A DNA stretch of 64,000 bases from Acidobacteriota bacterium (GCA_020199775.1 JAIVJZ010000046.1:9011-73010), one strand, 5' to 3'. Counted from the first letter of the stretch, positions 688 through 62,109 are shown. The notes: generated from the sequence alone by a model not told the origin. Translations and numbers: made by a program.

Positions 688-769
688 GTTTCAGGTTTCA
701 AGTTTCAGGTTTCAGGTCTGAAGTTAACCCGGTTTTTAACTTGAAATTTGGAACCTGAAACTTGAAACC
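688..769. repeat. Heptamer-armed hairpin, word GTTTCAG/GTTTCAA
   Basis: Left arm 688-727 = gtttcag gtttcaa gtttcag gtttcag gtctgaa gttaa. Loop cccggttt. Right arm 736-769 = ttaac ttgaaat ttggaac ctgaaac ttgaaacc, an imperfect reverse complement. Starts 1 nt after the infB stop (685-687). Confidence 0.85.
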
Positions 770-779
770 TTTGTGAGTT

Positions 780-1199
780 ATGCGAAGGCCCGAGAAAGTT
801 GCCGAACACGTGCGCGAGGAGATCGCGCAGATCGTCGGCTATGAGTTGGACGATCCGCGGGTGGCGATAGTCACCGTCACGGACGTGCGCATGTCTGACA
901 ACCTGCGCGAGGCGCGCGTCTTCGTCACCGTGAGCGGCACGGACGAAGAGGCCGCGACCGCGCTCAAAGCGTTGCGCAAGGCCGCGCCCTACGTGCGCCG
1001 CCAACTCGCCATCAACCTGAACCTGCGGCACGCGCCCGAAATACATTTCATCCGCGACACCGTCGAAGAAAAGGCCGCGCGCGTGGACGAACTCCTCCGA
1101 GGACTCACCCACGACGCTCCCCAATCCGATGCGGCCGACGACAACAACAGCGACGCCGACGCGGAAACCGGAGAGGAGAAGGTAAACGATGAAGTATGA
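780..1199 (+). CDS. rbfA: Ribosome-binding factor A
   Basis: MRRPEKVAEHVREEIAQIV...DPRVAIVTVTDVRMSDNLREARVFVTV...LRKAAPYVRRQLAINLNLRHAPEIHF is the typical RbfA pattern. Sits directly downstream of infB. Confidence 0.9.
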   Translation: MRRPEKVAEHVREEIAQIVGYELDDPRVAIVTVTDVRMSDNLREARVFVTVSGTDEEAATALKALRKAAPYVRRQLAINLNLRHAPEIHFIRDTVEEKAARVDELLRGLTHDAPQSDAADDNNSDADAETGEEKVNDEV

Positions 1200-1267
1200 A
1201 CGATGAACGATGAATGTAAGGCAACTGCTTTTACTTCATCGTTCATCGTTCCTACTTCATCGTTTTT
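1184..1267. repeat. Heptamer-armed hairpin, word GATGAAC/GATGAAG; terminator-like (T-run follows)
   Basis: Left arm 1184-1219 aaacgat gaagtat gaacgat gaacgat gaatgta a. Right arm 1231-1265 ttacttc atcgttc atcgttc ctacttc atcgttt (2 mismatches), followed by ttttt. The left arm contains the rbfA stop (1197-1199). Confidence 0.9.
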
Positions 1268-1274
1268 GAAAACC

Positions 1275-2345: not shown

Positions 2346-2354
2346 AATAGAAAG

Positions 2355-2558: not shown

Positions 2559-3551
2559 ATGACATGGTTCCGTAAAAAGGGACAGAAGATTGAGGTGGTT
2601 CCGGCGGACGAACGCGTCGTCAAGACCGAAGGCGTCTTCCGCAAGTGCCCCGAGTGCGACGCCGCGCTCTTCAAGAAAGACCTCGAAGAATCGCTGCAAG
2701 TCTGCCCGCCGTGCGGGCACCACTTCCGCATCGGCGCGCGCGAACGCCTCGCCATCCTCTACGATAACGCCGACTACGAAGAACTCGACGCCGAGGTTAT
2801 CTCTAACGACCCGCTCAACTTCGTCGATACCAAGCCTTACCCGCAGCGTCTAGAACAGGCCAAACGCTCGACCGGGTTGCCGGAGGCGATCATCAACGCG
2901 CGCGGAAAAATCAACGGCCACACGGTCTACGCGGGCGCGATGGACTTCAGTTTCCTCGGCGGCTCGATGGGTTCGGCCGTGGGCGAGAAGGTGACGCGCC
3001 TCGTGGAGCGCGCGATCAAGGAGCGCGCGGCCGTCATCACCATCACCTCTTCCGGCGGCGCGCGCATGCAGGAAGGCACGCTCTCGCTCTTGCAGATGGC
3101 GAAAGTCTCGGCCGCGCTCGCGCAACTCGACAAGTCGCGCCTCCCCTTCATCTCCATCCTGACCGACCCGACGACGGGCGGCGTGACCGCCAGCTTCGCC
3201 ATGCTCGGCGACGTGATCATCGCCGAGCCGAAAGCCCTGATCGGTTTCGCCGGGCCGCGCGTCATCGAACAGACCATCCGCCAGAAGTTGCCCAAAGATT
3301 TCCAACGCTCCGAATTCCTGCTCGAACACGGCATGCTCGACGCCGTCGTTGACCGGCGCGAGATGCGCCCTCTCATCGTCAAGCTGCTCGAATTTATGGT
3401 GAACCCCGAAATCAACGCGCCGCTGCTCGACGTGGACATCAACTTCGCCGGAGGCCAGAACGGCTACAACGCCAAGACCGCCGCAACGTTGCTTAAAGAG
3501 CAACCGTCCGAGGCAACTGTTCCCGGTTCTAAATCGCCGGCCGATAAGTAG
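2559..3551 (+). CDS. accD: Acetyl-CoA carboxylase carboxyltransferase beta subunit
   Basis: N-terminal zinc ribbon CPECDAALF...CPPCGHHFRI, then GGSMGSAVGEK, SGGARMQEG and TDPTTGGVTASFA motifs. Confidence 0.93.
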   Translation: MTWFRKKGQKIEVVPADERVVKTEGVFRKCPECDAALFKKDLEESLQVCPPCGHHFRIGARERLAILYDNADYEELDAEVISNDPLNFVDTKPYPQRLEQAKRSTGLPEAIINARGKINGHTVYAGAMDFSFLGGSMGSAVGEKVTRLVERAIKERAAVITITSSGGARMQEGTLSLLQMAKVSAALAQLDKSRLPFISILTDPTTGGVTASFAMLGDVIIAEPKALIGFAGPRVIEQTIRQKLPKDFQRSEFLLEHGMLDAVVDRREMRPLIVKLLEFMVNPEINAPLLDVDINFAGGQNGYNAKTAATLLKEQPSEATVPGSKSPADK

Positions 3552-4999: not shown

Positions 5000-5548
5000 A
5001 TGGACACATCAGGCAAAGAAGCCCCCGAAGTGGTCGCGAGCGAAGACGTGTATCGCGGCCGCATCTTCACGGTCACGCTCGACACGGTGCGCGAGGACGG
5101 GCGCGAGCACCGGCGCGAGGTCGTGCGCCATCCCGGCAGCGCGGCCATCGTCGCCGTGCACGACGACAACACGGTCTCGCTCGTCAGGCAGTATCGCCAC
5201 CCGACGGTGAAGTACCTGTTGGAAATCCCGGCGGGGAGTCGCGGCGATTTCGAGCCGCCGGAGGAGTGCGCGGCGCGCGAGTTGGAGGAAGAGTTGGGGC
5301 TGGTGGCCGAGAGTTGGGAGAAGTTGTCGGAGTTCTTCGTCTCGCCGGGCTTCTGCGGCGAAAAGATGTGGGTCTATCTGGCAACCGACCTGACCGAGAC
5401 CACGGCGCACCCGGAGGACGACGAGAATCTGGAGATCGTGCGCCTGAGCGTCCCGCGCGCTCTGGAGATGATCGAGGCGGGCGAGATCGAAGACGCCAAG
5501 ACCATCATCGGCCTCACGCTCGCCGCCGCACGACTCGGAACAGGGTGA
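5000..5548 (+). CDS. NUDIX hydrolase (ADP-ribose pyrophosphatase-like)
   Basis: Nudix box GSRGDFEPPEECAARELEEELGL. 182 aa. Confidence 0.85.
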   Translation: MDTSGKEAPEVVASEDVYRGRIFTVTLDTVREDGREHRREVVRHPGSAAIVAVHDDNTVSLVRQYRHPTVKYLLEIPAGSRGDFEPPEECAARELEEELGLVAESWEKLSEFFVSPGFCGEKMWVYLATDLTETTAHPEDDENLEIVRLSVPRALEMIEAGEIEDAKTIIGLTLAAARLGTG

Positions 5549-5667
5549 AGGGTATCGGGAACAGGGTGAAGGGTAAGGGGGAAGGGGTAAAGGTTAAAAA
5601 CAAGAAGGCGCGTTTATCGTGCGCCGCTCGCTTTCATCCTTTACCCTTTCCCCTTACCCTTTACCCT
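5543..5667. repeat. Heptamer-armed hairpin, word GGGTGAA/GGGTAAA/GGGGAAG
   Basis: Eight in-phase heptamers at 5543-5598 (gggtgaa gggtatc gggaaca gggtgaa gggtaag ggggaag gggtaaa ggttaaa). Right arm about 5636-5667 (tttaccc tttcccc ttaccc tttaccc). The first unit contains the NUDIX stop (5546-5548). Loop core 5596-5628 is identical to 9728-9760. Confidence 0.85.
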
Positions 5668-5680
5668 TGCTTGCTTCCGG

Positions 5681-9643: not shown

Positions 9644-9812
9644 CGGGAAAAGGGATAAAGGGGAAATGCTCAAGGGCGATGGGGAAAGGGTAAAGGGGGA
9701 AAGGGTAAGGGGGGAAAGGGTAAGGGTAAAAACAAGAAGGCGCGTTTATCGTGCGCCGCTTGCTTTCCACCTTTACCCTTTCCCCTTTACCCTTTCCTCT
9801 TCCCTTATCCCC
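9644..9812. repeat. Heptamer-armed hairpin, word GGGTAAA/GGGGAAA (same family and orientation as 5543-5667)
   Basis: G-rich arm 9644-9730 (…ggggaaa gggtaaa gggggaa agggtaa ggggggaaa gggtaag ggtaaaa). Core 9728-9760 aaaaacaagaaggcgcgtttatcgtgcgccgct is identical to 5596-5628. C-rich arm 9768-9812. Ends 6 nt before the pilT stop. Confidence 0.85.
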
Positions 9813-11078: not shown

Positions 11079-11352
11079 GTTCGGTTACGAGAAAATGGAT
11101 TGACGAGAAAGTGTCGAGGGGTGTTGGCGTCCGTGAGATTATCGCCCGCGGTTTTGGCTGCCCGCCGGCGACTGGACTCTACTACTGTACCGTTCCGAAC
11201 AAACTTTCGTAAAGCCTGTAACGAAAAAAATACGCGCCGGGCAAACAACCGCGCCGTTTCCGGCGTACATCAAATTGGAGGCAAGGCACGGGATGTGCTT
11301 AATTGGTTCGCGACGGCATCCCGTATTGACCGGAAGGAGGCGCTTTCAGGTT

Positions 11353-11610
11353 ATGGCAACCTACAGAGACCCTGTGCGAGTTTTTGCTCCGCTGGAGGTG
11401 GTTGAGCGCCTGCTGGAGATTCGCGAGGAAGCGGGTTACTCTCCCGAAATATTTCTCCGCTCGTCCGATGACTTGGCAGCTTATTTCGACGCTTACGGCT
11501 TTGACGTTTACGCATTCACCGAGACGGAATCCGAGTTTCACTACGGCCGCTACCGTGCCGCGCTCGCCCCGGGCGGCGACCACGCGCACAGTTCACCGAC
11601 CGCACACTGA
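11353..11610 (+). CDS. Hypothetical small protein (85 aa)
   Basis: ATG at 11353 preceded by ggaaggagg. Followed by a strong intrinsic terminator. No recognisable domain. Confidence 0.4.
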   Translation: MATYRDPVRVFAPLEVVERLLEIREEAGYSPEIFLRSSDDLAAYFDAYGFDVYAFTETESEFHYGRYRAALAPGGDHAHSSPTAH

Positions 11611-11635
11611 TTTTCAATAAGCAAGCTTAACCGGG

Positions 11636-11676
11636 ACGGGGGCGACCTTGAAAGAGGTCGCCCCCGTTTTGCTTTT
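11636..11676 (+). terminator. Rho-independent terminator
   Basis: 12-bp GC stem acgggggcgacc / ggtcgcccccgt, 8-nt loop, then ttttgctttt. Confidence 0.75.
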
Positions 11677-11701
11677 CCGCCGTCTCCATCGAGAGGCCGG
11701 A

Positions 11702-13091: not shown

Positions 13092-13135
13092 GATGAAGGA
13101 CGCGGCAGAGCAAGGATGAAGACGGAAAGATGAAG
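13092..13135. repeat. Degenerate single arm of the GATGAAG word family (no partner arm found)
   Basis: gatgaag at 13092, 13115 and 13129 (spacings 23 and 14 nt), in the gap between the PP2C gene start and the primase gene stop. Confidence 0.4.
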
Positions 13136-13174: not shown

Positions 13175-14311
13175 TCATCCCTCGCCCTCGTCCAACACGG
13201 CTTCCGTCAACAACGCAAACTCCAAGGCCGCCGCCGGGCGATGCCGGAAGAAATCGTTGACATCGGCGGGGAGCGTGATGCGCGCGAGCGAGAGGCCGCG
13301 CGCTTTGAAGAGTTCGCCGTAACGTTCGGCGGCGCGTCGCCCGGCCGCGTCCGGGTCGAGCGCGGCGACGACGCGGAAGCGGCCGAGCGACGCGAGCCAT
13401 TCCTCTTTCAAGCCGCCCGCGCCGACGAGCCCGACCGCCGCGAAGTCGTGCGCCGCGAGCGTCAGCGTGTCGGTAAAACCTTCGACCAGATAGACGACGC
13501 TTCCGCTCGCCAGTTCGTTCAAAGCGTCTACGTTGTAAAGCGACGGCACGACGCCGCGCATGTTGTGCCAACGCGGCTCGACTCCGGCGGCGGTCGTCCG
13601 CGCCTGCACATAGATCGCGCGCCCCTCGACGCGAAACGGGAACAACAGACGGTGCCGGTAAAACGTCAGGTGCGCACGCGCGTTGAACAGGCCGCCGCGT
13701 TGCAACTCTTCGAGCGGAAACGCGGCCTGCATCTTTCGCATCACGCGGCGGTACGCGCGACGCGGAAAGTAGACGACGTCTGCGCGCCGCGCCGTCCCGG
13801 CGTCAATCCCGCGGCGCGCGAGGTAGCCCAGTCCTTCCGTCTGATCTTCCGCGCGACACGCCGCGAGGAACGTCTCGCAGACCGCAGCCATGCGTTCCGC
13901 GCCGAGCGGTTCCGGTTCGTGCCCGGACGCCGACACCTCGTCGGGCGCGGCGCGCTGTGCGAGTGAACGCCCGCGGCTACCACGCCCGCCGAGTCCGAGT
14001 TCGCGCGCCAGTTCGCCGACGGCGCGGCCGAACTTCACCTCGTGCATCAACTCGTAGAAACGGATCGCGTCGCCGCCTTCGTCGCGCGAGAAGCAATGGA
14101 AGAGGCCGCGCGTGAGGTCTACGGAGAGGCTCGGATGGCCTCGGCCGCTGTGTGCGTGTGCGGGGATGGGGCAGAGCGTTTGGAGTCGATTGCCCGTGGG
14201 ATGTGCGTGCGGACAATAGCGCAGGTAAAAAGTGCGATAGTCTATGACGCGCTTGATCGCGTCGCGAAGTGCGAGCAGCCGTTCGCGTTCGGACTCCGGC
14301 TCAACGGGCAT
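13175..14311 (-). CDS. DnaG-like primase (CHC2-type zinc-finger region + Toprim domain), phage/plasmid type
   Basis: CPIPAHAHSGRGHPSLSVDLTRGLFHCFS resembles the DnaG CHC2 finger, but the fourth Cys position reads SRD. Toprim Glu in YLVEGFTDTLTL and DxD in ALDPDAAG. No helicase domain. ATG overlaps the upstream gene by 11 nt. Confidence 0.72.
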   Translation of the reverse strand: MPVEPESERERLLALRDAIKRVIDYRTFYLRYCPHAHPTGNRLQTLCPIPAHAHSGRGHPSLSVDLTRGLFHCFSRDEGGDAIRFYELMHEVKFGRAVGELARELGLGGRGSRGRSLAQRAAPDEVSASGHEPEPLGAERMAAVCETFLAACRAEDQTEGLGYLARRGIDAGTARRADVVYFPRRAYRRVMRKMQAAFPLEELQRGGLFNARAHLTFYRHRLLFPFRVEGRAIYVQARTTAAGVEPRWHNMRGVVPSLYNVDALNELASGSVVYLVEGFTDTLTLAAHDFAAVGLVGAGGLKEEWLASLGRFRVVAALDPDAAGRRAAERYGELFKARGLSLARITLPADVNDFFRHRPAAALEFALLTEAVLDEGEG

Positions 14312-14966
14312 GGCCGCTGTTGTTCGCGTAAGCCTGCCTGGCCGCCCAACGCGCCTCGACCTCTTCCGCGTGGCGCGCCCGGTACTCGCCCCACAGGCGC
14401 GACACCTTCATGCGGTATTCGACCAGCTCGCGGCTCACGTTGAACTGCCGCGCGATCTCCGTCGAAGTCCGACCCGCGCGCACGTATCGCCGCAGCGACG
14501 AGAAGGGCACGAGCGCGGCCGCGCCCACCGCATAAGCCGCCTCCTCGTCCGCCTCGTTGTAATCGCGCGCCACGGTCTTCCCCTGCTTGTTCTGCGCGAC
14601 GATGGACAGACGGTTCGCCTTGTGGCCGAGAAAGACGTGGCAGACTTCCTCCATCAACGTCGCGTTGTTGCGCGCCGCCCCGTGCTTCGGATTCAGCAGC
14701 ACCAGACGCCACCCGTTCGGCAGCGGGCGCGAGCACGTCCCGCCCGACCACGCATCAGAACCCACCCCCAGCAAATGCTCCCGCGTCTCTTCCGACAACC
14801 CCTGCACCTGCTCGAAATCAATCACCATCAACTTCGCGAAGTGCGCCAGCGCAAACGGGTCGAGCGGCTCGTCGTCGCGCCGCAACCCCGCGAACTCGCG
14901 CAACCCCATCGCCCGCACCTCGTACTGGCGTCCCTTAAACGTCGGCGGAAATTTCGTCTCGTCCAC
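14301..14966 (-). CDS. ImmA/IrrE-family (COG2856-like) metallopeptidase homologue with a variant EExxH motif
   Basis: RNNATLMEEVCHVFLGH aligns to the family pattern R..fTLaHElgHvlLgH. EEAAYAVGAAALVP and the C-terminal helix ...IARQFNVSRELVEYRM match the family tail. GTG start. Confidence 0.62.
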   Translation of the reverse strand: MDETKFPPTFKGRQYEVRAMGLREFAGLRRDDEPLDPFALAHFAKLMVIDFEQVQGLSEETREHLLGVGSDAWSGGTCSRPLPNGWRLVLLNPKHGAARNNATLMEEVCHVFLGHKANRLSIVAQNKQGKTVARDYNEADEEAAYAVGAAALVPFSSLRRYVRAGRTSTEIARQFNVSRELVEYRMKVSRLWGEYRARHAEEVEARWAARQAYANNSGHAR

Positions 14967-14990
14967 GATCTTGCTGATCCCTATTCCCGG

Positions 14991-15566
14991 CTATGCCGCC
15001 CCTGCGACCTTCGCGTATGCGTCCTTCAAGGCAATCTCACAACCGATGACGCTGATCTTTATCACGTCTCCCGCATCGTGATATTCCGAGTATCGCCATT
15101 CCTTGTCGCTCTGCCTCACATACTGCTCGATCCGGCACGGCTCTTGAGCGACGAGAATGTATTCCGTCAGTGACGCGATCTGCTGGTACTGCTCAAACTT
15201 CTTCCCACGGTCATATGCTTCCGTCGAAGCCGACAAAACCTCGATGATCACCACCGGATTGAGCAGCGTGTCATTCTCCGCATCATCAAACAACTCCGGC
15301 TCACACGCCACAACGACATCGGGATACGTGTACTTCCCCGTCGCGCTCACCTTCACGCGCATATCGCTCGGATAAACATTGCACGCGCGCTCAAGCAACT
15401 GATTACCAAGCACGCGAATGATGTTCGCCGCAATGAGATTATGTCGCTTACTCGCGCCCACCATCGCAAACACTTCGCCCCCGAAATACTCGCTCCGCGT
15501 CTCGGCCTTTCGCTCCGCGGCGAGATATTCCTCCGGGGTCATTAATGTTTTACGTTGAGAAGACAT
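14991..15566 (-). CDS. Uma2 family (DUF820) PD-(D/E)xK endonuclease
   Basis: MTPEEYLAAE...SEYFGGEVFAMVGASKRHNLIAANI...YPDVVVAC...NPVVIIEVLSASTEAYDRGKKFEQY is the characteristic Uma2 pattern. Confidence 0.85.
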   Translation of the reverse strand: MSSQRKTLMTPEEYLAAERKAETRSEYFGGEVFAMVGASKRHNLIAANIIRVLGNQLLERACNVYPSDMRVKVSATGKYTYPDVVVACEPELFDDAENDTLLNPVVIIEVLSASTEAYDRGKKFEQYQQIASLTEYILVAQEPCRIEQYVRQSDKEWRYSEYHDAGDVIKISVIGCEIALKDAYAKVAGAA

Positions 15567-15594
15567 AATGTTTCTGCCCTTGCGCCAGCCGCTA

Positions 15595-15828
15595 TCAGGA
15601 CAACTTATCCCATTCCTCGGCCGTTATCTGACGGCCGGTAATGGCTTCGACTTCACGCAACATCATCCGCAGTTGCGGCACGGAGTATTCAGAATTGGAA
15701 GGGATAGTGAGCCGGTGCTGTTGATAAATCATAAACTGATGCTTCGCACCGGAATACAAACCTTCAAAGCCAAGTTGCCGCAGCCGCCGGATGAAATCGG
15801 ATCGTTTACACGGATTCCAGCGACTCAT
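15595..15828 (-). CDS. hicA: HicA family toxin (mRNA interferase)
   Basis: 77 aa; KRSDFIRRLRQLGFEGLYSGAKHQFM...LTIPSN matches the HicA/YcfA pattern. Overlaps the hicB-like gene by 23 nt. Confidence 0.8.
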   Translation of the reverse strand: MSRWNPCKRSDFIRRLRQLGFEGLYSGAKHQFMIYQQHRLTIPSNSEYSVPQLRMMLREVEAITGRQITAEEWDKLS

Positions 15829-16078
15829 AGACAGGCTCCCTGTTCAGGTCTATCCCGTCAATCACCGGAAGCTGATGCCCTAACTTCAAACCCAGCCACA
15901 GCCAGTCTTCCAGAGTCGAACGCAACTCTTCTTCACACTCTCTCAACGTCGCACCGAAAGACACCACTCCCATACACGTCTCAATCCGACCGGAAAAACT
16001 ACCATCCTCCAACTTGTCATACTCCGCCCCCGCCATCGCGGATTCTAAATATTCGCTCAAGATGAATTGTATGCTCAT
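15806..16078 (-). CDS. hicB: HicB family antitoxin (N-terminal HicB fold only)
   Basis: ATG 16078 preceded by agaggtgg. YDKLEDGSFSGRI...GVVSFGATLRECEEELRSTLEDWL is HicB-like. No obvious C-terminal DNA-binding domain. Confidence 0.72.
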   Translation of the reverse strand: MSIQFILSEYLESAMAGAEYDKLEDGSFSGRIETCMGVVSFGATLRECEEELRSTLEDWLWLGLKLGHQLPVIDGIDLNREPVYESLESV

Positions 16079-16134
16079 AGCCACCTCTGGACTTTGTACC
16101 TTAATACTCTCAAATGCACAGAGCAAGCTGATGT

Positions 16135-16380
16135 TTATGAGATTTTGGTTTTATCAAACTGACGTTTACTGGGACAAACATCCCAATCAAATGTCCAAGA
16201 GCTAGACGAGATTTGTCTAGCAATACCGCATCTAAATTTGTCGACGCAATTCCTGAAGTTCATGCCCATAGGAATAGGTTGGGGTAGCTCATCAACAGTC
16301 AGGAAAGATTTCTCAATTCGTACATCAGCTATACCTCCTAAAACCGGACAATTAAAATTGTGTCTCTCAATCTTGTTCAT
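16135..16380 (-). CDS. Hypothetical small Cys-containing protein (81 aa), low GC
   Basis: ATG 16380 preceded by aaggag at 5-nt spacing. Four Cys (NCPV...NCVDKFRCG...VCPS). No recognisable family. Confidence 0.45.
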   Translation of the reverse strand: MNKIERHNFNCPVLGGIADVRIEKSFLTVDELPQPIPMGMNFRNCVDKFRCGIARQISSSSWTFDWDVCPSKRQFDKTKIS

Positions 16381-16425
16381 ATAGTCTCCTTTCAAAGAAT
16401 AGCGGGATAAAGCACTAACTACAAT

Positions 16426-16459
16426 TTAGGCGCGCGACTCAGTAGAGCCGCGCGCCTAA
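16426..16459 (-). terminator. GC-rich hairpin downstream of the XRE gene (possible terminator; weak U-tract)
   Basis: 11-bp stem ttaggcgcgcg / cgcgcgcctaa with a 12-nt loop, in an otherwise AT-rich spacer. Confidence 0.35.
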
Positions 16460-16484
16460 TAAACTTGAGAACTGAGAGTGCCGG

Positions 16485-16919
16485 TTACTTCCGCTTGTTG
16501 CGCGTGCGCGGGTCTTCGCCGGGATGGCTGAACTGGGCGTAGGCGACGCGGAAGAGTTCGGAGAGGGCTTTGGCGGTTTCGGCCGAGAGGTTGCGGTCGG
16601 CGCGCAGGTGCGCTTCGACGATGTCGGGCGTCGCTTCGTGCGGGAAGTAGACGACCGCTTTGGCCGCTTCGTTGCCGCCGGCGTCCGGCTGGCGGCCAGA
16701 CATGATGCGCTCCATCGGCATGTCGAGCCACGCGGTGAGGCGTGCGATGTTGTCGGCGTCGGGTTTGCCCGTGCCGTTTTCGATGCGCGAGAGCGTCGAG
16801 GCCGAAACCTGCGTTTCCGTCGCCACATCGCGCAGGCTCAAGCCCGCTTCCTCGCGTTTGCGGCGGATCGCCCGCCCCAGTTCCACCGTGTTTACTAAAC
16901 TTTTTCCTGATTCTGCCAT
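16485..16919 (-). CDS. XRE/cI-family helix-turn-helix transcriptional repressor
   Basis: LGRAIRRKREEAGLSLRDVATETQVSASTLSRIENG is a canonical HTH_XRE, followed by an extra C-terminal domain of about 75 aa. ggagg lies 8 nt upstream of the ATG. Confidence 0.85.
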   Translation of the reverse strand: MAESGKSLVNTVELGRAIRRKREEAGLSLRDVATETQVSASTLSRIENGTGKPDADNIARLTAWLDMPMERIMSGRQPDAGGNEAAKAVVYFPHEATPDIVEAHLRADRNLSAETAKALSELFRVAYAQFSHPGEDPRTRNKRK

Positions 16920-16989
16920 ATTTTTGGCCTCCTTCTAGCGTGTTCCCCGCCTCTGTAAGAGCGGGCACACGCCCCTCCTCTAAGCCCAG

Positions 16990-17018
16990 AACATATCACA
17001 GGAAAATCCCAGACGCAA
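16990..17018 (-). promoter_or_regulatory. Candidate sigma-70-like promoter for the XRE gene
   Basis: On the minus strand TTGCGT-17 nt-TATGTT (plus-strand acgcaa 17013-17018, aacata 16990-16995). Confidence 0.35.
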
Positions 17019-17033
17019 GACCTTGTTTTATGC

Positions 17034-17062
17034 TTGCAACAAAAAACGTCCCATGGTACACT
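17034..17062 (+). promoter_or_regulatory. Candidate sigma-70-like promoter for the rightward operon
   Basis: TTGCAA (17034-17039)-17 nt-TACACT (17057-17062). Back-to-back with the leftward promoter. Confidence 0.4.
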
Positions 17063-17080
17063 GTTTCACGTATGAAACAG
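17061..17080. promoter_or_regulatory. Candidate operator palindrome
   Basis: CTGTTTCA-cgta-TGAAACAG, a perfect 8+4+8 inverted repeat overlapping the -10/+1 of the rightward promoter. Confidence 0.45.
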
Positions 17081-17125
17081 AGCGTTTCGGACTCTGTGGC
17101 AAATGGCGAAAAACGAGAGGGTGTA

Positions 17126-17341
17126 ATGAGCGATCACATCTGGGAGACATTCGACGGCTTGTTCAAGACGGTACACCGGCAGGGGCGGCGCGTCGAAGAG
17201 TTGGAGGCGCGCATCGTCGACCTCGAACGCCGTCTGGCGGAACGCGCCGCAGTAGCGGTCGGGAGCACGGCGGCGCAGCAGCAGCAGCCGAAGCAAGCGC
17301 AGACGACGGTGAGCGAAATGCCCGTCGAGCGCGCGGCGTAA
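17126..17341 (+). CDS. Hypothetical small coiled-coil protein (71 aa)
   Basis: ATG 17126 preceded by gagaggg. RRVEELEARIVDLERRLAER is coiled-coil-like. First gene of the rightward operon. Confidence 0.45.
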   Translation: MSDHIWETFDGLFKTVHRQGRRVEELEARIVDLERRLAERAAVAVGSTAAQQQQPKQAQTTVSEMPVERAA

Positions 17342-17374
17342 GTTTTGACAGGAGATTTGAAGGAGTTAACAGTC

Positions 17375-18688: not shown

Positions 18689-18792
18689 ACGCATAATCCA
18701 AGGGGAGCCGGAAAGAATCGCGGCGGGGCGGCGGCGAAGAGTAAATCAAACCTGCCCCGCGCGCGACGGCTTCGGGAAGTAAGAGGTTCACA

Positions 18793-20630: not shown

Positions 20631-20718
20631 TAGCCCGTGGTCGGTTGCCGGTCGTCCTTTCTAAACGGTAGTAATCGCCCGGTGAATCACAAGACGGCCG
20701 GCAACCGACCACGGGCTA
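20631..20718. repeat. Long inverted repeat (26-bp arms, 36-nt loop); no clear heptamer phasing
   Basis: tagcccgtggtcggttgccggtcgtc (20631-20656) pairs with gacggccggcaaccgaccacgggcta (20693-20718), one mismatch. Begins 10 nt after the DUF1761 stop. Confidence 0.7.
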
Positions 20719-33200: not shown

Positions 33201-33205
33201 ATTTC

Positions 33206-35732: not shown

Positions 35733-35741
35733 TTTTGGTTG

Positions 35742-44515: not shown

Positions 44516-44632
44516 ATCAGCGGTCAGCCGTCAGCCGTCAGCTTTCAGCATTAAATACATAAGATGTTTTGCTCTGAGCCATTGTAAAGGAATCAGCGGC
44601 GGTTTTCGACTGACGGCTGAAAGCTGATGGCT
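44516..44632. repeat. Heptamer-armed hairpin, word GTCAGCC (more degenerate copy)
   Basis: Left atcagcg gtcagcc gtcagcc gtcagct ttcagca (44516-44550). Right tgacggctgaaagctgatggct (44611-44632) pairs with the inner 16 nt of the left arm. Confidence 0.68.
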
Positions 44633-44688
44633 AAAAAAAAACGGATCGAGCGCGGCGGGTTGGCTGTCTCCGCCTCAACTCGATCCGT
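44633..44688 (-). terminator. Intrinsic terminator of the 44712-46364 gene
   Basis: Stem acggatcgag / ctcgatccgt with a structured loop. On the minus strand it is followed by T9-10 (plus-strand A-run 44633-44641). Confidence 0.65.
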
Positions 44689-44711
44689 TCGTGCGCTTGC
44701 CGTGTCGCTCG

Positions 44712-46364: not shown

Positions 46365-46544
46365 AAACTAAACTCCTTGAGGGCGGGCGTCGTCCGGTTG
46401 GAGAACCGGGAACCTCTCGGACGATCTTTCGAGCGTGCGGTGGCGGCGCGAACGACGCGGGGCGTGAGACAACAAAATCCGGCCTGCCCTTCCGTAAACA
46501 GGCCACTATTTGAAGCTAACAGACGCGCCGACGAAGCGTCAAGA

Positions 46545-46629
46545 GAAACGATGAAGTAGGAACGATGAACGATGAAGTAAAAGCAAGTTGTCTTTACTTC
46601 ATCGTTCATCGTTCCTACTTCATCGTTTC
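46545..46629. repeat. Heptamer-armed hairpin, word GATGAAC/GATGAAG (near-perfect palindrome; close copy of 1184-1265)
   Basis: gaaacgatgaagtaggaacgatgaacgatgaagtaaaag (46545-46583) pairs with ctttacttcatcgttcatcgttcctacttcatcgtttc (46592-46629). The right arm contains the stop of the 46620-47639 gene. Confidence 0.92.
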
Positions 46630-47639
46630 CCTACCGTCACGTCGTCCGCCGTGTTCGGTTTGCCGTCCGCGCCGAGCGAGCGGAGGGTGAAGCGTTCGCG
46701 CGCGCCGACGTATTCGTAGGGGCGATGCCACGGGTCGAAGCGGATAAGCGCAGCGGTGTAATCCGGGTTGAGATGATCGACGAGGTCGGAGGCCGTTTCG
46801 GCGACGACGTAGAACCCGCGCGCGCGTCGATACTCTTCGAGCAGCGCGGCCAAACTTTCGAGGTCGGCGCGGGCGCGCGCCAGTTTCTCCGTGTTGAGCG
46901 CGCTCTCGAAAGCGTCGAACGCCTCAAAGCCGCGCCCGCCTCCGATGCGCACGCGCGCCACCTGCCAGCGTCCGCGCGCGTCGCGCACGAAATCCACGGA
47001 TGTTTCGACTTCCAACTCGACCACCGCCGCAGACCCCATCGGGGCGAGCGCGGCCGCCGGGTTCTTGACCGAGAGCGCGCCGCGCCTCAATTCCTTCGGC
47101 GGTTGGTTCTTGTCGTTGCCTATCGGTTGACTCTCCGGCGCGTCGCTTGCGGTCGCGCTCTTGTTATTGCCGAGCGCGGCGAGTTCGGCAGCGAACGCGT
47201 CGAGTTCAACGCGCGCGAATGCAAGGCCATCGCCGCCGAGCGCGCGCGCCAGCAGGTCGAACGATTCCCACTGGCGGTCGCCCGTCCTGACTTCGAGCAC
47301 GCGCCAACTGCCCGCCGCGTCTTTCACGAAACGAAAGCCCAGTTTCACGCCCGCCAGCACGGTCGCGACCGCGCCGGGCGGCGAGATTTCCTTGATCGTC
47401 ACCGCCTCTTTGTTGAGTTCGAAGAGCGACACGGCGGCGATCAGTTTGCGCGCGTCGTCCTTCTTGATGGCCTTCTCCGCGGCCGCCGTGGCGATGCCGC
47501 CCGCGCTACCGGCGGCGAACGCGCACAGCGCGGCGCAGACGCTCAGGATAAAAATCGTCCGCTGAGTTGTGTTTCTCATACGTTGGCTTGCCCGGCGTTG
47601 GATGTCGAAATCGGGTGTCGAAGAAGTATCGAAACTCAA
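46620..47639 (-). CDS. Secreted hypothetical protein with a C-terminal GspG-like (type II secretion pseudopilin C-terminal) segment
   Basis: Signal-like ILSVCAALCAFAAGSAGG. C-terminal DPWHRPYEYVG...LRSLGADGKPNTADDV resembles the T2SS_G C-terminal motif. 4-nt overlap with the upstream response regulator. Confidence 0.5.
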   Translation of the reverse strand: MSFDTSSTPDFDIQRRASQRMRNTTQRTIFILSVCAALCAFAAGSAGGIATAAAEKAIKKDDARKLIAAVSLFELNKEAVTIKEISPPGAVATVLAGVKLGFRFVKDAAGSWRVLEVRTGDRQWESFDLLARALGGDGLAFARVELDAFAAELAALGNNKSATASDAPESQPIGNDKNQPPKELRRGALSVKNPAAALAPMGSAAVVELEVETSVDFVRDARGRWQVARVRIGGGRGFEAFDAFESALNTEKLARARADLESLAALLEEYRRARGFYVVAETASDLVDHLNPDYTAALIRFDPWHRPYEYVGARERFTLRSLGADGKPNTADDVTVGKR

Positions 47640-48046: not shown

Positions 48047-48115
48047 GTGACGGGCGACAGGTGACGAGTTGAAGACAAGCTCTTTTGTTTTAACTCGTCA
48101 CCTGTCGCCCATCAC
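48047..48115. repeat. Heptamer-armed hairpin, word GTGACGG/GCGACAG/GTGACGA (same family as 27075-27150, opposite orientation)
   Basis: gtgacgg gcgacag gtgacga gttgaag (48047-48074) pairs with ttttaactcgtcacctgtcgcccatcac (48088-48115), 1 mismatch in 24. The right arm contains the pdxA stop (48098-48100). Confidence 0.88.
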
Positions 48116-49773: not shown

Positions 49774-50019
49774 TTTTTTACTTATGCCTCCAACAGTCGT
49801 ACAAGCAGGAAAACGGCGCGCTGAATTTTGAATACCCCGACTCTCTACGGACGAGTTGCCAAACAAATGGCGCGCTTGGATGCGCCTGCTTTTACAGGCG
49901 GTGGTCGTTTGCAAGACGAGAACGGTTATTGTCTCGTTAGTTTTGAATTACAATCCTGTCAGGAATGGGCGACATGCTACACGAGCAACGTTAGTTTGGC
50001 AAGCCTCACGCGCCGGGAA

Positions 50020-50144
50020 GCAGTCAGCCGTCAGCTATCAGCCATCAGCGGAAAAGAAGTAGAGCCGTGAGTGAATCAGCATCGGCTGAATCTGCTCACG
50101 GCTCAATGTTTATTGCTGACGGCTGATAGCTGATGGCTGACTGC
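50020..50144. repeat. Heptamer-armed hairpin, word GTCAGCC, with a second hairpin in the loop
   Basis: gcagtcagccgtcagctatcagccatcagc (50020-50049) pairs with gctgacggctgatagctgatggctgactgc (50115-50144): 28/30 paired, the 2 mismatches 14 nt apart. Inner hairpin gagccgtgag...ctcacggctc at 50062-50104. Abuts the ftsZ stop. Confidence 0.92.
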
Positions 50145-51340
50145 TAATCGGCCTTCTTGCGGATGAAGGCGGGCACGTCCAGATCGTCGGAGCGCGTCTG
50201 CCCGGCGGCGGTGCTGCGCGACGGCAACTCGTCGGTGCGCGGCAGGTAACGCGGCTGCGCCGCCGGCATCACGTTCGGGTTCGTGACGAGACCGGCGTCA
50301 GCGGATTCTTTGTCGAAGCCCGTCGCGATGACCGTGATCTTCATCTCGTCGCGCATGGTCTCGTCGATCACCGCGCCGAAGATGATGTTGGCGTCCTCGT
50401 CGGCCGCCTCGCGGATAATCGAAGAGGCTTCGTTGACTTCAAACAGCGTCAGGTCTAGGCCGCCCGTGATGTTGATGAGCACGCCCTTCGCGCCGTTGAT
50501 CGACGCCTCTTCCAGCAGGGGCGAAGAGATCGCTTCCTGCGTCGCCTTGAGCGCGCGGTCTTCTCCGCTCGCGCGTCCCGCGCCCATCAAGGCCATGCCC
50601 ATCCCGGCCATGATCGATTTCACGTCGGCGAAGTCGAGGTTGATGAGGCCGGGCACGGTGATCAAGTCGCTGATGCCCTGCACGGCTTGCCGGAGCACGT
50701 CGTCCGCCATCTTGAAGGCGTCCGTCAGAGACATATCTTTGGTCACGTTGCCGAGCAGACGCTCGTTCGGGATCGTGATGACCGTGTCCACACACTCGCG
50801 CAGTTCCCTCAAGCCCTGATCGCCCTGCTGCATGCGCCGCTTGCCTTCAAAGTGAAACGGCTTCGTGACGACGGCGACCGTCAACGCGTTCAACTCCGTC
50901 GCAAGGCTCGCGATGATCGGCGCCGCGCCCGTGCCCGTGCCGCCGCCGAGGCCGGTCGTGACGAAGACCATGTCCGCGCCTTCCAGAGCCTCGATGATCT
51001 TCTCCGTGTCTTCGAGCGCGGCGTTGCGTCCCACGTCGGGGTTCGCGCCCGCGCCCAGTCCTTTCGTCAACTTGCCGCCGAGTTGAATCTTGATCGGCGC
51101 GCGCGAACGCTTCAACGCCTGCAAGTCGGTGTTGGCGACGAGGAACTCGATGCCCTCTATTCCGGCCTCAATCATGCGGTTGACGGCGTTGCCCCCGCCG
51201 CCGCCCACGCCGATCACTTTGATGCGCGCGCCGGTGATCGGAGGATCGTCGTCTATGAAAATATTAATGCCACTGCCCGGCTGACGGCTTTCCGGTGTCA
51301 TATCGTATAAGTCCTTTCCTCTTCTGTGAACGCCCGCCAC
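50144..51340 (-). CDS. ftsZ: Cell division protein FtsZ
   Basis: [29 protein letters not shown] (tubulin signature), C-terminal [10 protein letters not shown] peptide. GTG start. Confidence 0.96.
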
Positions 51341-54052: not shown

Positions 54053-54088
54053 GTGACAAGTCACAGGTGACAAGCGACGCGTGACGGG
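54053..54088. repeat. Single array of GTGACAA-family heptamers (no clear partner arm)
   Basis: gtgacaa gtcacag gtgacaa gcgacgc gtgacgg g, between the ftsQ start (54032) and the murB stop (54106). Confidence 0.5.
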
Positions 54089-56552: not shown

Positions 56553-56581
56553 GTGAGCAGTGAGCAGTAAGCAGTAAGCAG
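56553..56581. repeat. Left arm of a heptamer hairpin (word GTGAGCA/GTAAGCA) that encloses a gene
   Basis: gtgagca gtgagca gtaagca gtaagca g. Starts 7 nt upstream of the murC start region. Pairs 27/29 with 56985-57013. Confidence 0.88.
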
Positions 56582-56598
56582 TTTTAAATTCAAGAGCT

Positions 56599-56964
56599 TC
56601 ATTGATTACTACCTATCGACTTCTTAAGCCCGTAAGTTAAAGCCAAACACTCATCTAATAAACGTTGTGCTTCAAGTGAAGCGTTCTCGCAGAGATGCCC
56701 GACGCGATATGCGATCTCAAGTTGCGTGCTCACCTCATTGAGTGAACCGACGGCAATCCCCAAGAAATTCTTGAACTGATCGTTCGACCGACCCCCTGCC
56801 CCTTCACTAATATTTGACGGCACGGAAACCGCTGCTCGTCGAAGTTGCGAAGTCAATCCATAGATTTCCTCTTTGGGGAATCTTTTAGTGAGATCGTAAA
56901 TCAACACAACTAGCTCCATGCTCTTCTGCCACGCAACAAGCCTTTTGTGTGGTTTCTCCATCAT
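56599..56964 (-). CDS. Four-helix-bundle protein, 23S rRNA intervening-sequence protein family (PF05635/TIGR02436-like; Avd-like fold)
   Basis: [89 protein letters not shown] is the family pattern (FP..E.y.L..Q.rRAa.Si..NIaEG..r.s..ef..fl.iA.GS..E). Visibly lower GC than its neighbours. Confidence 0.88.
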
Positions 56965-56984
56965 AACCTCAGCTCCGGCTTTGA

Positions 56985-57013
56985 CTGCTTACTGCTCACT
57001 GCTTACTGCTCAC
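56985..57013. repeat. Right arm of the gene-enclosing heptamer hairpin
   Basis: ctgctta ctgctca ctgctta ctgctca c. Contains the murG stop (56996-56998). Confidence 0.88.
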
Positions 57014-59298: not shown

Positions 59299-59307
59299 AA
59301 CTCAAAC

Positions 59308-59393
59308 GGGTTTCAAGTTTCAGGTTTCAAGTTTCAAGTCCGAAAGGTCTTCGTTCTTTAACTTGAAACCTGAAACCTGAGACTTGAAACTTC
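59308..59393. repeat. Heptamer-armed hairpin, word GTTTCAA/GTTTCAG (same family as 688-769)
   Basis: Left gg gtttcaa gtttcag gtttcaa gtttcaa gtc (59308-59340). Right taacttgaaacctgaaacctgagacttgaaacttc (59359-59393). The right arm encodes the last 11 codons of murD (...LRFQVSS) plus its stop. Confidence 0.88.
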
Positions 59394-60773
59394 TTCCACC
59401 GCTTCCTTGAAGACTCTGCCCCGGTGCTCGAAACTGTCGAACATGTCCCAACTGGCGCACGCCGGGGCGAGCAGCACCACATCGCCCGCCCGCGCGACCT
59501 CCGCCGCCTGCCGCACGGCCTCCGCCATGTCTCCGACGCGAATGACGCGCGCATGCGCTTTCAACTCGCTCTCGATGCGTTCGGCGTCTTCGCCGAGGAC
59601 GACGAGGGCGCGCGCCTTGCGCTCGATGAGCGGCGCGAGCGGCGCGTAGGGCGCGTTCTTGCCGCGCCCGCCGAGGATCAAGACGATCCGCCCCGCGTGT
59701 GCGGCGAAGGCTTCGAGCGCCTTCAAGGCCGCGTCCACGTTCGTCGCCTTCGAGTCGTTGTAGAACTCGACGCCCGCGACTTCGCCGACGCGTTCCAGCC
59801 GGTGCTCGACGGGTCGGAAGTTCCGCACCGTCTCGCGCATCGAATCGGGCGACGCGCCGCACGCCAGCCCGCACGCGAGCGCGGCCAGCACGTTCTGCAC
59901 GTTGTGCAAACCGCGCAGTTGCATCTCGTCGCGCGTCATCAACACGCGCTCGCCGCCGCCAACACTATCGCGCGTCCGCGAAACCAACTCGCCGCCACTG
60001 CTGCTGCTGCCGCCACGCCGGAGGAACAAGCCCTCTTCCAGTTCGCGCTCGACGCTGAACAGCGTGACGTGCGCGCGCAAACCCGACGCCCACGAGGCGA
60101 CTACTGGATCGCCCGCGTTCAGGACGGCCACGTCCTCCGCCGTCTGGTTGCGGAAGATGCGATGCTTGGCCGCGCCGTAGTCGGTCAGGGTCTCGTAGCG
60201 ATCCATGTGGTCTGGCATCAGATTCAACACGACGGCGACGTTCGGGTGAAAATCAACAATCGTCTCTAGCTGGTAGCTCGAAACTTCGACAACCGTCCAG
60301 CCATCCTCGCGCGACGAGTCCACGAGCGAGACGAGCGGCGTGCCGATGTTGCCGCCGACCTGCGTGGGCAATCCCGCGCCGCGCAACAACTCCGCGACGA
60401 GCGCGGTCGTCGTCGTCTTCCCGTTCGTGCCCGTGATGGCGACGATGCGCCCGCGCAGGTGTCGCGCGGCGAGTTCGACTTCGCCGATCACTTCCGCGCC
60501 CGCGCGCTCCATGTAGCGCACCGGGATATTCTTCGGCGGCACGCCGGGACTCGTGACGACGAGTTCGATCTGATCCATCAACCACATCGGCACGTCGCCC
60601 GCGAGCAGCCCGACGCCTTCCGCCTTCAACGCACGCGCCTCGTCCGTCCACTCCTCGATGGGCTTGCGGTCGTTCAACGCGACGGTCGCCCCGCGCGCCG
60701 CCAAAAATCGCGCCGCCGCGATGCCGCTGCGCGCCGCGCCGATGACCAGAACTTTTTTCCCTTCAAGCCGCAA
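59358..60773 (-). CDS. murD: UDP-N-acetylmuramoylalanine--D-glutamate ligase
   Basis: KVLVIGAARSGIAAARFL, ITGTNGKTTTTAL, NDSKATN. Confidence 0.92.
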   Translation of the reverse strand: MRLEGKKVLVIGAARSGIAAARFLAARGATVALNDRKPIEEWTDEARALKAEGVGLLAGDVPMWLMDQIELVVTSPGVPPKNIPVRYMERAGAEVIGEVELAARHLRGRIVAITGTNGKTTTTALVAELLRGAGLPTQVGGNIGTPLVSLVDSSREDGWTVVEVSSYQLETIVDFHPNVAVVLNLMPDHMDRYETLTDYGAAKHRIFRNQTAEDVAVLNAGDPVVASWASGLRAHVTLFSVERELEEGLFLRRGGSSSSGGELVSRTRDSVGGGERVLMTRDEMQLRGLHNVQNVLAALACGLACGASPDSMRETVRNFRPVEHRLERVGEVAGVEFYNDSKATNVDAALKALEAFAAHAGRIVLILGGRGKNAPYAPLAPLIERKARALVVLGEDAERIESELKAHARVIRVGDMAEAVRQAAEVARAGDVVLLAPACASWDMFDSFEHRGRVFKEAVEEVSSLRFQVSS

Positions 60774-60800
60774 TTTTTTTCAGCTTTCACCCGCCCGTCT

Positions 60801-61946
60801 CTAACGCAGTTTCAAAGTCGAGAGACTCAGGAGCGCGAACAGGATCGCGAGAATCAAAAAGCGGAAGACGACTTTCGACTCCTTCCAGCCCTGCATCTCG
60901 AAGTGGTGGTGCAGCGGCGTCATCTTAAAGAGCCGCCGCCCCGTGCCCGTGTGCCGCTTCGTCATCTTGAAGAAGGAGACTTGCAGCATCACCGAGATCG
61001 CTTCGAGGACGAACACGCCGCCGACGAGGACGAGGATGAACTCCTGCTTCGTCAAAATCCCAATCGTGCCAATCGCGCCGCCGATGGCGAGGCTGCCCAC
61101 GTCGCCCATGAACACGTCCGCGGGCGGCGCGTTGTACCACAGGAAGCCGAGCGACGCGCCCGCCATCGCCCCGCAAAAAACCGTCAGTTCGCCGACCTCG
61201 CGGCGGTGGTCGATAAACAGTTGCCGCGCCCAACGCTCGTCGCCGCTCACATAAGTGAAGGCCGTCAGCGCGACCATCGCGATGAAGGTCACGCTGATGG
61301 CGAGCCCGTCGAGGCCGTCCGTCAGGTTCACCGCGTTCGACGCGCCCGTGAGCACGACGATGATGAAGACCAGATAGAGCCACGGCCCGATGTTCGTGAT
61401 CATCGAGATGTCCGTCTGTTTGAAGAACGGAAAGCTGAGATTCCACGAATAGTCGGGCGAGAAAAAGTAGAGCGTCGCCCACACCCCGGCCGCGATCAAA
61501 AACTGCGCGGCCAGTTTCTGCTTGCCCGTCAACCCCAAGCTCTGCCGCTTCGCCACCTTCGCGTAGTCGTCGAGGAAGCCGACGACGGCGAAGAGCGCGG
61601 TCGAGACCAGAATGATCCAGACGTAGAGGTTGGAGAGCCGCGCCCAGAGGAGCGTGGAGATGAGCACCGAGCCGATGATGAGGACGCCGCCCATCGTCGG
61701 CGTGCCGCGCTTCGCCATGTGCGCCTGCGGCCCCTCTTCCCTGATCTGCTGCCCGACGTTCATCTCGCGCAGCATGCGTATGACGCGGCCGCCGAAGACG
61801 AGCGAGATGAGCAGCGCGGTGACGGTGGCGTAGGCCGTGCGGAACGTGACGTACTGGAAGACGTTGAGCGCCTTGATGAAAACCGACTGCGCGCCCTGCC
61901 CGCCGGAACGCTCGAAAATCAAGTGATAGAAGATGTAATAGATCAT
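60801..61946 (-). CDS. mraY: Phospho-N-acetylmuramoyl-pentapeptide transferase
   Basis: [44 protein letters not shown]. Confidence 0.95.
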
Positions 61947-61955
61947 CCGTTAATT

Positions 61956-62109
61956 AAACGAGGAACGCGGAACGATGAATGATGAAGTGAAAGAGATTGA
62001 TTCATTGATTCATTGATTCAATGAAGAAATTAAAGATTGAATCAATGAGCCGATGAATCAATGAATCAATCTCTCTAGTTCATCGTTCCGCGTTCATCCT
62101 TCATCGTTT
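61956..62109. repeat. Nested double hairpin: outer GATGAAC/GCGGAAC-word arms enclosing an inner TGATTCA-word hairpin
   Basis: Outer arms 61956-61995 and 62071-62109. Inner element 61996-62070 = attgatt cattgat tcattga ttcaatg ... attgaatcaatgagccgatgaatcaatgaatcaat. The outer right arm contains the murF stop (62094-62096). Confidence 0.88.

Follow-up and report, generated by a model that had tools for sequence, protein, structure and literature searches.

Why does a GC-rich bacterial genome carry, in the short gaps between its genes, one long hairpin after another whose arms are tandem arrays of seven-nucleotide units? The question is raised by a stretch of 64,000 nucleotides from an Acidobacteriota bacterium (GCA_020199775.1, JAIVJZ010000046.1:9011-73010), referred to here in its full length as the window, for which an initial annotation made from the DNA alone had listed a family of such hairpins. 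The window contains 19 hairpins with arms of this kind, one of which encloses a gene of the PF05635 family, i.e. the family of the protein encoded in intervening sequences (IVS) of 23S rRNA (S23p). In our reading, the hairpins of the window are probably gene-less relatives of an IVS-type family that combines heptamer-array arms with a PF05635 gene, living here in the spacers of messenger RNAs.

The heptamer hairpins are real and occur far beyond chance. Tandem Repeats Finder (TRF) reported period-7 arrays at nearly all loci named in the initial annotation, mostly as facing pairs, and the longest inverted repeats of the window are almost all hairpin loci, with stems of 26-45 nt that are 72-96% complementary. 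Our detector returned 20 period-7 arrays, 15 of which have a reverse-complement partner at most 500 nt away, compared to a mean of 1.0 period-7 arrays and no paired array in dinucleotide shuffles (n=30), and to 0-1 paired arrays at control periods 4-15 other than 7; a stricter first detector, which demanded the periodicity filter of both arms, had given only 4 pairs and was superseded. At lags of 7 and 14 nt the arms matched themselves with a mean identity of 0.70 and 0.71, respectively, whereas other lags gave 0.16-0.30. Folded as RNA, the elements reached energies of -25 to -85 kcal/mol, with z-scores of -8 to -15 in nine of the ten that were folded and -2.9 for the degenerate element at 27075. 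Every element is intergenic. Together they occupy 19 of the 39 spacers of at least 40 nt and, with a total of 2393 nt at a GC content of 0.47, make up 31% of the intergenic bases of a window that has a GC content of 0.64 and an intergenic share of 12%. All but two of the 19 lie between co-oriented genes, often starting within 10 nt of a stop codon and ending 5-10 nt ahead of the next start codon.

These results bear out the initial annotation where it described one architecture written in several words, located outside coding sequence in short gene gaps; mismatches spaced 7 or 14 nt, which it had also pointed out, were seen again by TRF and in orthologue alignments. Its count of eight heptamer words holds in so far as there are several word families, seven or more by our analysis, with G-runs only in the GGGTAAA/GGGGAAA loci. 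The word TGATTCA was wrong, the inner repeat at 61992-62074 having a period of 8 (ATTGATTC). Nearly all loci in its list hold period-7 arrays, one hairpin (20631-20718) having been missed, and of its two half-arrays the one at 54053-54088 is real, while that at 13092-13135 is barely periodic, has no partner and was not counted.

The element at 56553-57013 had been read as a hairpin with a long loop and nothing more, but its loop holds the PF05635 gene. The closest solved structure to its product is PDB 2GSC (Xanthomonas XCC0516, five chains; E 4e-30), and the PF05635 protein is a pentameric four-helix-bundle relative of Avd, a retroelement protein. The cassette runs in the same direction as the operon, sits between murG and murC and not inside an rRNA helix, is poorer in GC than the window (0.47 vs 0.64) and has arms in which TRF finds periods 7 and 14 on both sides. 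None of the other 18 elements has an open reading frame in its loop. Homologues with 73-80% identity occupy two other spacers in Pyrinomonadaceae contigs, that between the E1alpha and E1beta genes of a 2-oxoacid dehydrogenase in L081 and the lspA/lgt spacer in L083, and in each case inverted arrays of the identical words GTGAGCA/GTAAGCA flank the gene; a third homologue is found again at murG/murC in another Pyrinomonadaceae contig. Since the same gene comes with the same arms at different sites, gene and arms form one unit. A tblastn search with the PF05635 protein of the window against 80 valS-centred loci gave no additional copies, which makes the gene far less common than the hairpins.

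How general this association is was surveyed in 80 metagenome loci that encode PF05635 relatives at 45-70% identity (contig GC 0.32-0.70), of which 76 could be tested. The best inverted repeat across the PF05635 gene was heptamer-periodic in 50 of these 76 loci, compared to 1 of 270 positions drawn at random from these loci, and in at least 44 of the 50 positive loci the arms pair solely across this gene. The arms are also polar: AGT is found in the 5' arm words in 38 of 53 cases and in the 3' arm in 1 of 53, the consensus unit of the 5' arm being A-G-T-(G/A)-N-N-C, with words that vary by locus. Array size is narrow, 261 of 365 paired arrays having 4-5 units, a range whose lower end is partly set by the detection threshold. 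Most neighbouring genes have the orientation of the PF05635 gene (52 vs 10 upstream, 54 vs 13 downstream, by crude gene calls). Two surveyed loci have period 8. Versions with this period were noted in L107 (around 3001-3366) and L138, an example being GTGGACGA repeated 11 times beside a PF05635 gene; period-8 arrays (GCAGGAGG) also accompany the PF05635 gene of a Gemmatirosa plasmid (L167), and the period-8 family of 61992-62074 recurs in L045. In two further loci (L133 and L135, about 2900-3450) a PF05635 cassette occupies the same host spacer, just upstream of a conserved gene whose product starts with MAQGQ, with different words (GTTTTCA/GTTGTCA vs GCTGTCA/GCTTTCA).

Plasmid matches to PF05635 come mostly from heterocystous cyanobacteria (Nostoc, Calothrix, Anabaena), and among the four plasmid loci inspected, those of Nostoc punctiforme and Calothrix have complementary heptamer arrays on both sides. 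The plasmid copy of Nostoc PCC 7120 is a misfit: the heptamers on its two sides lack mutual complementarity, and an ISL3 element adjoins it. On N. punctiforme pNPUN01 (L164, 408-1415) a co-oriented tyrosine recombinase gene is located directly upstream of the PF05635 cassette, which may be coincidence or a lead to mobility. In Xanthomonas campestris the order is accB, a GGGAATC array, the XCC0516 orthologue, the inverse array and accC, one side reading GGGAATC GGGAGTG GAGAATC GGGAATC and the other its inverse. It seems likely that the class as a whole consists of widespread, poorly described small palindromic elements with arms of about 4-5 seven-base, rarely eight-base, units. On balance we also favour the view that its full form has a PF05635 gene in the loop, with the window holding one cassette and 18 gene-less relatives.

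The gene-less copies spread to new spacers as well. The 5543 and 9644 elements share a 45-nt loop core, AAAAACAAGAAGGCGCGTTTATCGTGCGCCGCTYGCTTTC (5590-5635 and 9724-9768), and the elements at 1184-1267 and 46545-46629 are about 90% identical, loop included, the flanks being unrelated in both cases. Shared loops at unlinked sites with unrelated flanks imply that gene-less copies were themselves copied and dispersed as several families, contrary to the initial annotation, which had argued against spread of a mobile sequence. The core AAAAACAAGAAGGCGCGTTTATCGTGCGCCGCTYGCTTTC itself contains a small GC hairpin (GGCGCG / CGTGCGCC). In L081, where every spacer of the operon has a hairpin, a GTGAGCA hairpin that lacks the gene and stands one gene apart from the cassette retains the cassette leader TAAAAACAG in its loop, and most words of the window (GTGACGG, GTGAATC, GCTGTCA/GCTTTCA, GTTTTCA, GGGGTAA) recur flanking PF05635 genes elsewhere; words like those of 20631-20718 do so in L141. 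Gene-less forms were thus presumably derived from cassettes. Loops of 1-2 kb suggested by long-range pairing proved to be mostly separate hairpins of the same family in neighbouring spacers, and not giant cassettes.

Orthologous sites turn over in their content and keep their pairing. Upstream of pdxA (48047), GTGACAG-type arms are present in the window, L002 and L003, relatives have at least six other words there, among them GTGATGA, ATGATGA, GGATGAA, CGTGAAC and GGACTGA, and L012, L015 and L030 have an empty site of 31-40 nt. The 39907 site is taken by another family in L003, the closest relative of the window, and in L004, L006 and L008, and elements nested at loop centres were seen in L004, L006, L020 and at 61956-62109 of the window. 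Arms keep pairing and change in concert: among orthologues of the 35654 site, compensatory C-G to G-C changes occur at every seventh column in both arms, a pattern that in the alignment reads as concerted change. Template switching is established for quasipalindromes, and replication slippage within an arm, together with template switching between the arms, would account for this upkeep.

What else could such arrays be? That they belong to the host as regulatory arrays, i.e. paired binding sites of a host DNA-binding protein or cruciform sites that control promoters or topology, with PF05635 as just one kind of gene lying between them, we consider unlikely, although the valS locus lends it substance. 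There, the loop of the 44516 element contains a promoter-like TCGAAA-17-TACAAT (44609-44581, minus strand), and 20 related genomes conserve this motif, CATTGTAAAGSAAT, in a single copy per locus located 30-90 nt ahead of valS; the arrays that bracket it in many genomes differ in word and have the core CTGA in common (CTGAAAA, CTGACGG, CTGACCA), and some genomes keep only the array in the 5' untranslated region. This points to arms evolving in place around a fixed loop. As the motif is found once per locus and always upstream of valS, the loop as a mobile promoter was ruled out. The conserved unit core with its variable positions, the narrow array length, the lack of strand bias in fold energy and the published reading of similar, mostly paired Geobacter sites as sites of a global regulator (PMC2700814) fit regulatory arrays too. 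Most elements, however, occupy the narrow gaps between cistrons of essential operons such as the dcw cluster and infB-rbfA, where one would not expect a promoter, orthologous sites are empty or filled with unrelated words, copies with identical loops stand beside unrelated genes, and the link to one gene family (50/76 vs 1/270) is left unexplained. A purely local origin, with polymerase slippage, reportedly biased towards 7-nt units, making the heptamer arrays and template switching the palindromes, free of mobility and of any protein link, would suit the change of word around the fixed valS loop, the homogenised units within arrays and the unit numbers that differ between orthologues; slippage as a source of heptamer excess is an idea that PMC4692102 quotes. 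This reading is already strained by the gene association and the identical loops at unlinked loci, and it explains neither the finding of one gene with one word at separate sites in several genomes nor the fixed polarity, the AGT core and the narrow 4-5 units, so that we regard it as very unlikely.

Elements similar to REPINs, the hairpins formed by repetitive extragenic palindromes (REP), or to miniature inverted-repeat transposable elements (MITE), moved by a transposase encoded elsewhere, e.g. a Y1 HUH enzyme acting on single-stranded hairpins, with PF05635 as cargo or accessory, would share with our hairpins their shape, the lack of target-site duplications, the dispersal in families and the nesting. 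RAYT genes sit between REPs, and a gene between inverted copies of its own repeat mirrors that arrangement. The arms, though, are built as tandem arrays instead of one conserved palindrome, in the 80 metagenome loci they enclose PF05635 and not a transposase gene, and the roughly 50 proteins scanned in the window, which do not speak for the rest of the genome, include no transposase of any kind, nor Y1 or RAYT proteins in particular, so that the hairpin-recognising transposase proposed in the initial annotation found no counterpart there; we give this explanation a slightly lower chance than host regulatory arrays. A single ordinary MITE was rejected, given several families, no target-site duplications and no insertion sequence (IS) partner found. 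Least credible is selection by the host for intrinsic terminators, attenuators or 3'-end stabilisers of mRNA. REP elements stabilise upstream mRNA in E. coli, which offers a precedent, and the stems are very stable and lie just past stop codons, yet at least five T within 8 nt after the stem on the relevant strand were found for only about 3 of the 19 elements (27075, 33091 and 35654). Since most elements are without a T-tract on either strand, the terminator role suggested in the initial annotation was rejected, and many of them lie between essential co-transcribed genes (mraY/murF, ftsW/murD, infB/rbfA). Moreover, a classic terminator (44640-44711, minus strand; stem ACGGATCGAG...CTCGATCCGT followed by T9), conserved in L001-L010 and missed by a consensus scan because of its long loop, follows the response-regulator gene and directly adjoins the 44516 element, implying that termination is done by something other than the hairpin. 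Just past the 28924 element, at 29064-29093, a GC-rich 12-bp stem follows a run of eight A on the plus strand (T8 on the minus strand) and resembles a terminator for transcription running against the flanking genes.

Several observations weigh against our own reading of the hairpins as relatives of the PF05635 cassette. No mobilising enzyme was found in the window, in which transposase, reverse transcriptase and RNase III genes are absent from the scanned proteins, and aligned family members with known boundaries have no target-site duplications. A single possible one is seen at the orthologue of the 48047 site in L017, where TTAAA flanks the hairpin left and right, the empty L030 site having a single copy. 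About one third of the PF05635 genes are without clear heptamer flanks. With 18 of the 19 elements gene-less, the reverse route, in which the gene inserts into loops of existing hairpins, is possible besides the descent from cassettes that we suppose. Fold energy has no strand bias, the sense strand being more stable in five elements and the antisense strand in eight, so that nothing indicates selection at the RNA level; an argument for such selection from G-U vs A-C asymmetry was rejected on the same ground. Finally, a valS mRNA started at the predicted promoter would carry one arm only, and a DNA-level or protein-binding role, possibly that of the valS arrays, fits this better than insertion followed by RNase III processing.

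If the hairpins nevertheless are such gene-less relatives, they would be transcribed with their operon and fold into 25-45 bp stems, which RNase III would cut, separating or removing the insert and leaving the flanking genes undamaged, by analogy with the IVS of Coxiella. They would persist where they are harmless, in transcribed spacers mostly inside operons, and the PF05635 pentamer may recognise the arrays, a possibility suggested by the conservation of the AGT core and by the limited range of array lengths. A bolder and much more tentative extension is that PF05635 proteins are the missing partner of bacterial heptamer repeats generally: the pentameric ring might bind one arm single-stranded, each of the five subunits reading one AGT-type core and skipping the four bases that separate it from the next, in a manner similar to the reading of spaced triplets by TRAP, and the module might be an unrecognised self-spreading element or an RNA-processing switch. 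Because the PF05635 protein is related to Avd, spread could conceivably involve a reverse transcriptase. If this were true, it would account for the short tandemly repeated repetitive (STRR) sequences of cyanobacteria, Xanthomonas GGGAATC, the Geobacter sites, protein-coding rRNA IVS and the acidobacterial hairpins alike.

Table 1. Heptamer-array elements of the window and the gene of its cassette (positions in the window; percentages give complementarity of the arms; z, folding z-score).
Position	Element	Strand	Context	Arms and further evidence
688-769	Hairpin, GTTTCAG/GTTTCAA		fills infB/rbfA spacer	arms 693-727 / 736-770, 86%; TRF period 7; z -7.9
1184-1267	Hairpin, CGATGAA/GTATGAA units		rbfA/nrnA spacer	arms 1184-1223 / 1226-1265, 88%; z -13.4
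2355-2510	Hairpin, GCCGTCA (GTCAGCC), loop ~97 nt		nrnA/accD spacer	TRF arrays 2355-2376, 2473-2497
5543-5667	Hairpin, GGGTAAG/GGGTGAA		downstream of nudix gene	arms 5562-5604 / 5627-5669
9644-9812	Hairpin, GGGTAAA/GGGGAAA, 6-8 units		beside pilT	arms 9678-9716 / 9764-9802; TRF periods 7, 14, 21
20631-20718	Hairpin, GTGGTCG GTTGCCG GTCGTC			arms 20631-20656 / 20693-20718 (26 nt), 96%; z -9.1
24324-24437	Hairpin, GGGTAAA-type, right arm period 14		divergent spacer prc/24587	TRF arrays 24353-24376, 24397-24435; fold ~-50 kcal/mol
27075-27150	Degenerate hairpin, GTGACGA/GTGACAA		between two M16 peptidase genes	TRF arrays 27072-27104, 27131-27149; z -2.9
28924-29054	Hairpin, GCCGTCA/GCCATCG, loop ~63 nt			TRF arrays 28934-28964, 29028-29053; fold ~-65 kcal/mol
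33091-33200	Hairpin, GGGGAAA-type			TRF array 33159-33205; orthologous hairpins with varied units in L002, L004, L006
35654-35732	Hairpin, CGTCAAT/CGTGAAT			arms 35650-35685 / 35701-35736
39907-39988	Hairpin, GGATGAA/CGCGGAA/CGATGAA units		convergent spacer	arms 39907-39941 / 39953-39987, 89%
44516-44632	Inverted GTCAGCC arrays		around probable valS promoter	TRF arrays 44517-44542, 44610-44636
46545-46629	Hairpin, CGATGAA/GTAGGAA units, best stem of the window			arms 46542-46586 / 46588-46632, 45 nt, 93%; z -14.9
48047-48115	Hairpin, GTGACGG/GCGACAG		upstream of pdxA	arms 48047-48073 / 48089-48115, 93%
50020-50144	Hairpin, GTCAGCC		by ftsZ stop codon	arms 50012-50049 / 50115-50152, 87%; z -14.3; conserved in L003, L004
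54053-54088	Single array, GTGACAA-type, no partner arm		ftsQ/murB spacer	read from sequence; conserved in L003, shorter in L004
56553-57013	Gene-bearing cassette, GTGAGCA/GTAAGCA x4 arms	minus	murG/murC	arms 56553-56582 / 56984-57013, 30 nt, 93%
56602-56964	PF05635 gene (23S rRNA intervening-sequence protein, S23p)	minus		120 aa; Pfam E 6e-35
59308-59393	Hairpin, GTTTCAA/GTTTCAG		ftsW/murD spacer	arms 59310-59339 / 59361-59390, 93%; z -8.0
61956-62109	Outer hairpin, CGAGGAA/CGCGGAA/CGATGAA units		mraY/murF spacer	TRF arrays 61957-61986, 62078-62108; fold -72 kcal/mol
61992-62074	Inner hairpin, period 8 (ATTGATTC)		in loop of outer hairpin	arms 61992-62024 / 62042-62074, 88%; TRF 95% matches

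The genes aboard the window include infB-rbfA-nrnA, accD-folC, pilT, valS and the dcw cluster from murF to ftsZ, and the valyl-tRNA synthetase (41824-44508, minus strand) is 89-92% identical to its counterparts in Pyrinomonadaceae metagenome-assembled genomes (Acidobacteriota), the host being a soil acidobacterium of this family. An exact look-up of the RbfA protein gave no record. An Rfam scan of the window at the gathering threshold gave no rRNA or other match and an ARAGORN scan no tRNA. The loop of the 50020 element contains, at 50060-50105, a non-heptamer hairpin (GAGCCGTGAG...CTCACGGCTC) that is conserved in L003 and L004, and a promoter-like site of accD (2522-2550) lies outside the 2355-2510 element. 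A probable mobile or prophage-like island, likely acquired recently, extends from 13175 to 19332 and encodes a primase-like Toprim/zinc-ribbon protein, an IrrE/M78 peptidase, a Uma2 endonuclease, an HTH regulator and a Rad52-like protein; its seven spacers are free of heptamer hairpins. Two long spacers, 11079-11701 (623 nt) and 15567-16484 (918 nt), are without called gene and without hairpin.

The association of the PF05635 gene with inverted heptamer arrays joins three long-standing puzzles by one repeatable observation, namely heptamer repeats like STRR, the intergenic excess of 7-nt repeats and the role of the 23S IVS protein, and it may account for the heptamer repeats that have been known from cyanobacteria and Xanthomonas for decades. 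STRR were reportedly described in 1990. The excess of 7-nt repeats in bacterial intergenic DNA goes back to work of 2007, as cited in PMC4692102, and the protein of 23S rRNA intervening sequences to Ralph and McClelland 1993, as cited in PMC4990558; a 2024 preprint still calls the 23S-rRNA-IVS protein 'functionally uncharacterized'. The accB-XCC0516-accC locus of X. campestris is a tractable test system, for which a crystal structure (2GSC) and genetics exist. As the elements take up so much of the intergenic DNA of the window and lie inside essential operons, they need to be taken into account when operons are predicted, RNA processing is mapped and metagenomes are assembled for soil Acidobacteriota.

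Which known repeats, then, do these elements resemble? The initial annotation had likened them to STRR of heterocystous cyanobacteria, rightly so in that both are intergenic tandem heptamers with several word families, and PF05635 copies with inverted arrays exist in Nostoc punctiforme and Calothrix. The phylum is another one, as are the words, which we take to differ from STRR1-3, and to our knowledge the published descriptions of STRR are of direct arrays and in general not of palindromes. In REP elements and their mosaics (BIME), REPIN-RAYT systems and MITEs, as in the window, abundant intergenic palindromes form families per genome and a gene may lie between inverted copies of its own repeat; in our elements, however, arrays make up the arms in place of one conserved palindrome of 20-40 bp, the gene that goes with them does not encode a transposase, and the target-site duplications, IS-like ends or IS partner of a MITE are missing in the window. 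From intrinsic terminators the elements differ in their low GC content (0.47) and in the scarcity of T-tracts (about 3/19).

The architecture alone is not new, and where the initial annotation knew of no account of palindromes built from tandem heptamers in a GC-rich genome, there are precedents in Xanthomonas and Geobacter metallireducens. The GGGAATC repeats of Xanthomonas (65% GC) number about 186 sites per genome, with 70-75 inverted pairs (Rehm et al. 2015, PMC4692102), and they share with our elements a GC-rich genome, an intergenic and mostly transcribed position, inverted pairs and a copy number that varies between species. Xanthomonas uses one G-rich word, for which G-quadruplexes are discussed (PMC4692102), whereas the window uses seven or more, of which only GGGTAAA/GGGGAAA is G-rich. 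In G. metallireducens, five tandem heptanucleotides, drawn as looping back on the opposite strand, occur at 16 places and were read as sites of a global regulator, mostly paired (PMC2700814); our comparison with them is by description. Term searches of these two papers returned no mention of the PF05635 gene (PMC4692102) or of S23p or four-helix proteins (PMC2700814). In the literature searched, whose coverage is incomplete so that a prior description is possible, the one paper linking PF05635 with heptamer arrays was that on the Coxiella IVS (PMC4990558), and otherwise we found neither this link nor a life in operon spacers described.

The closest likeness is to the protein-coding 23S IVS of Coxiella and Leptospira, in which terminal repeats form a long stem that has a PF05635 gene in its loop, within a transcribed unit. 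The IVS of Coxiella burnetii has a 28-bp terminal stem, a PF05635-type (S23p) gene and three tandem GACAGAT heptamers, the number of which varies between strains, and RNase III cuts it at the first repeat (PMC4990558); as in our elements, tandem heptamers of variable number are found in the stem region. The elements of the window differ in that their host is an mRNA operon spacer and not an rRNA helix, and in that many gene-less copies and several word families coexist. The shared design lends indirect support to the view that the hairpins of the window, too, may be processed by RNase III.

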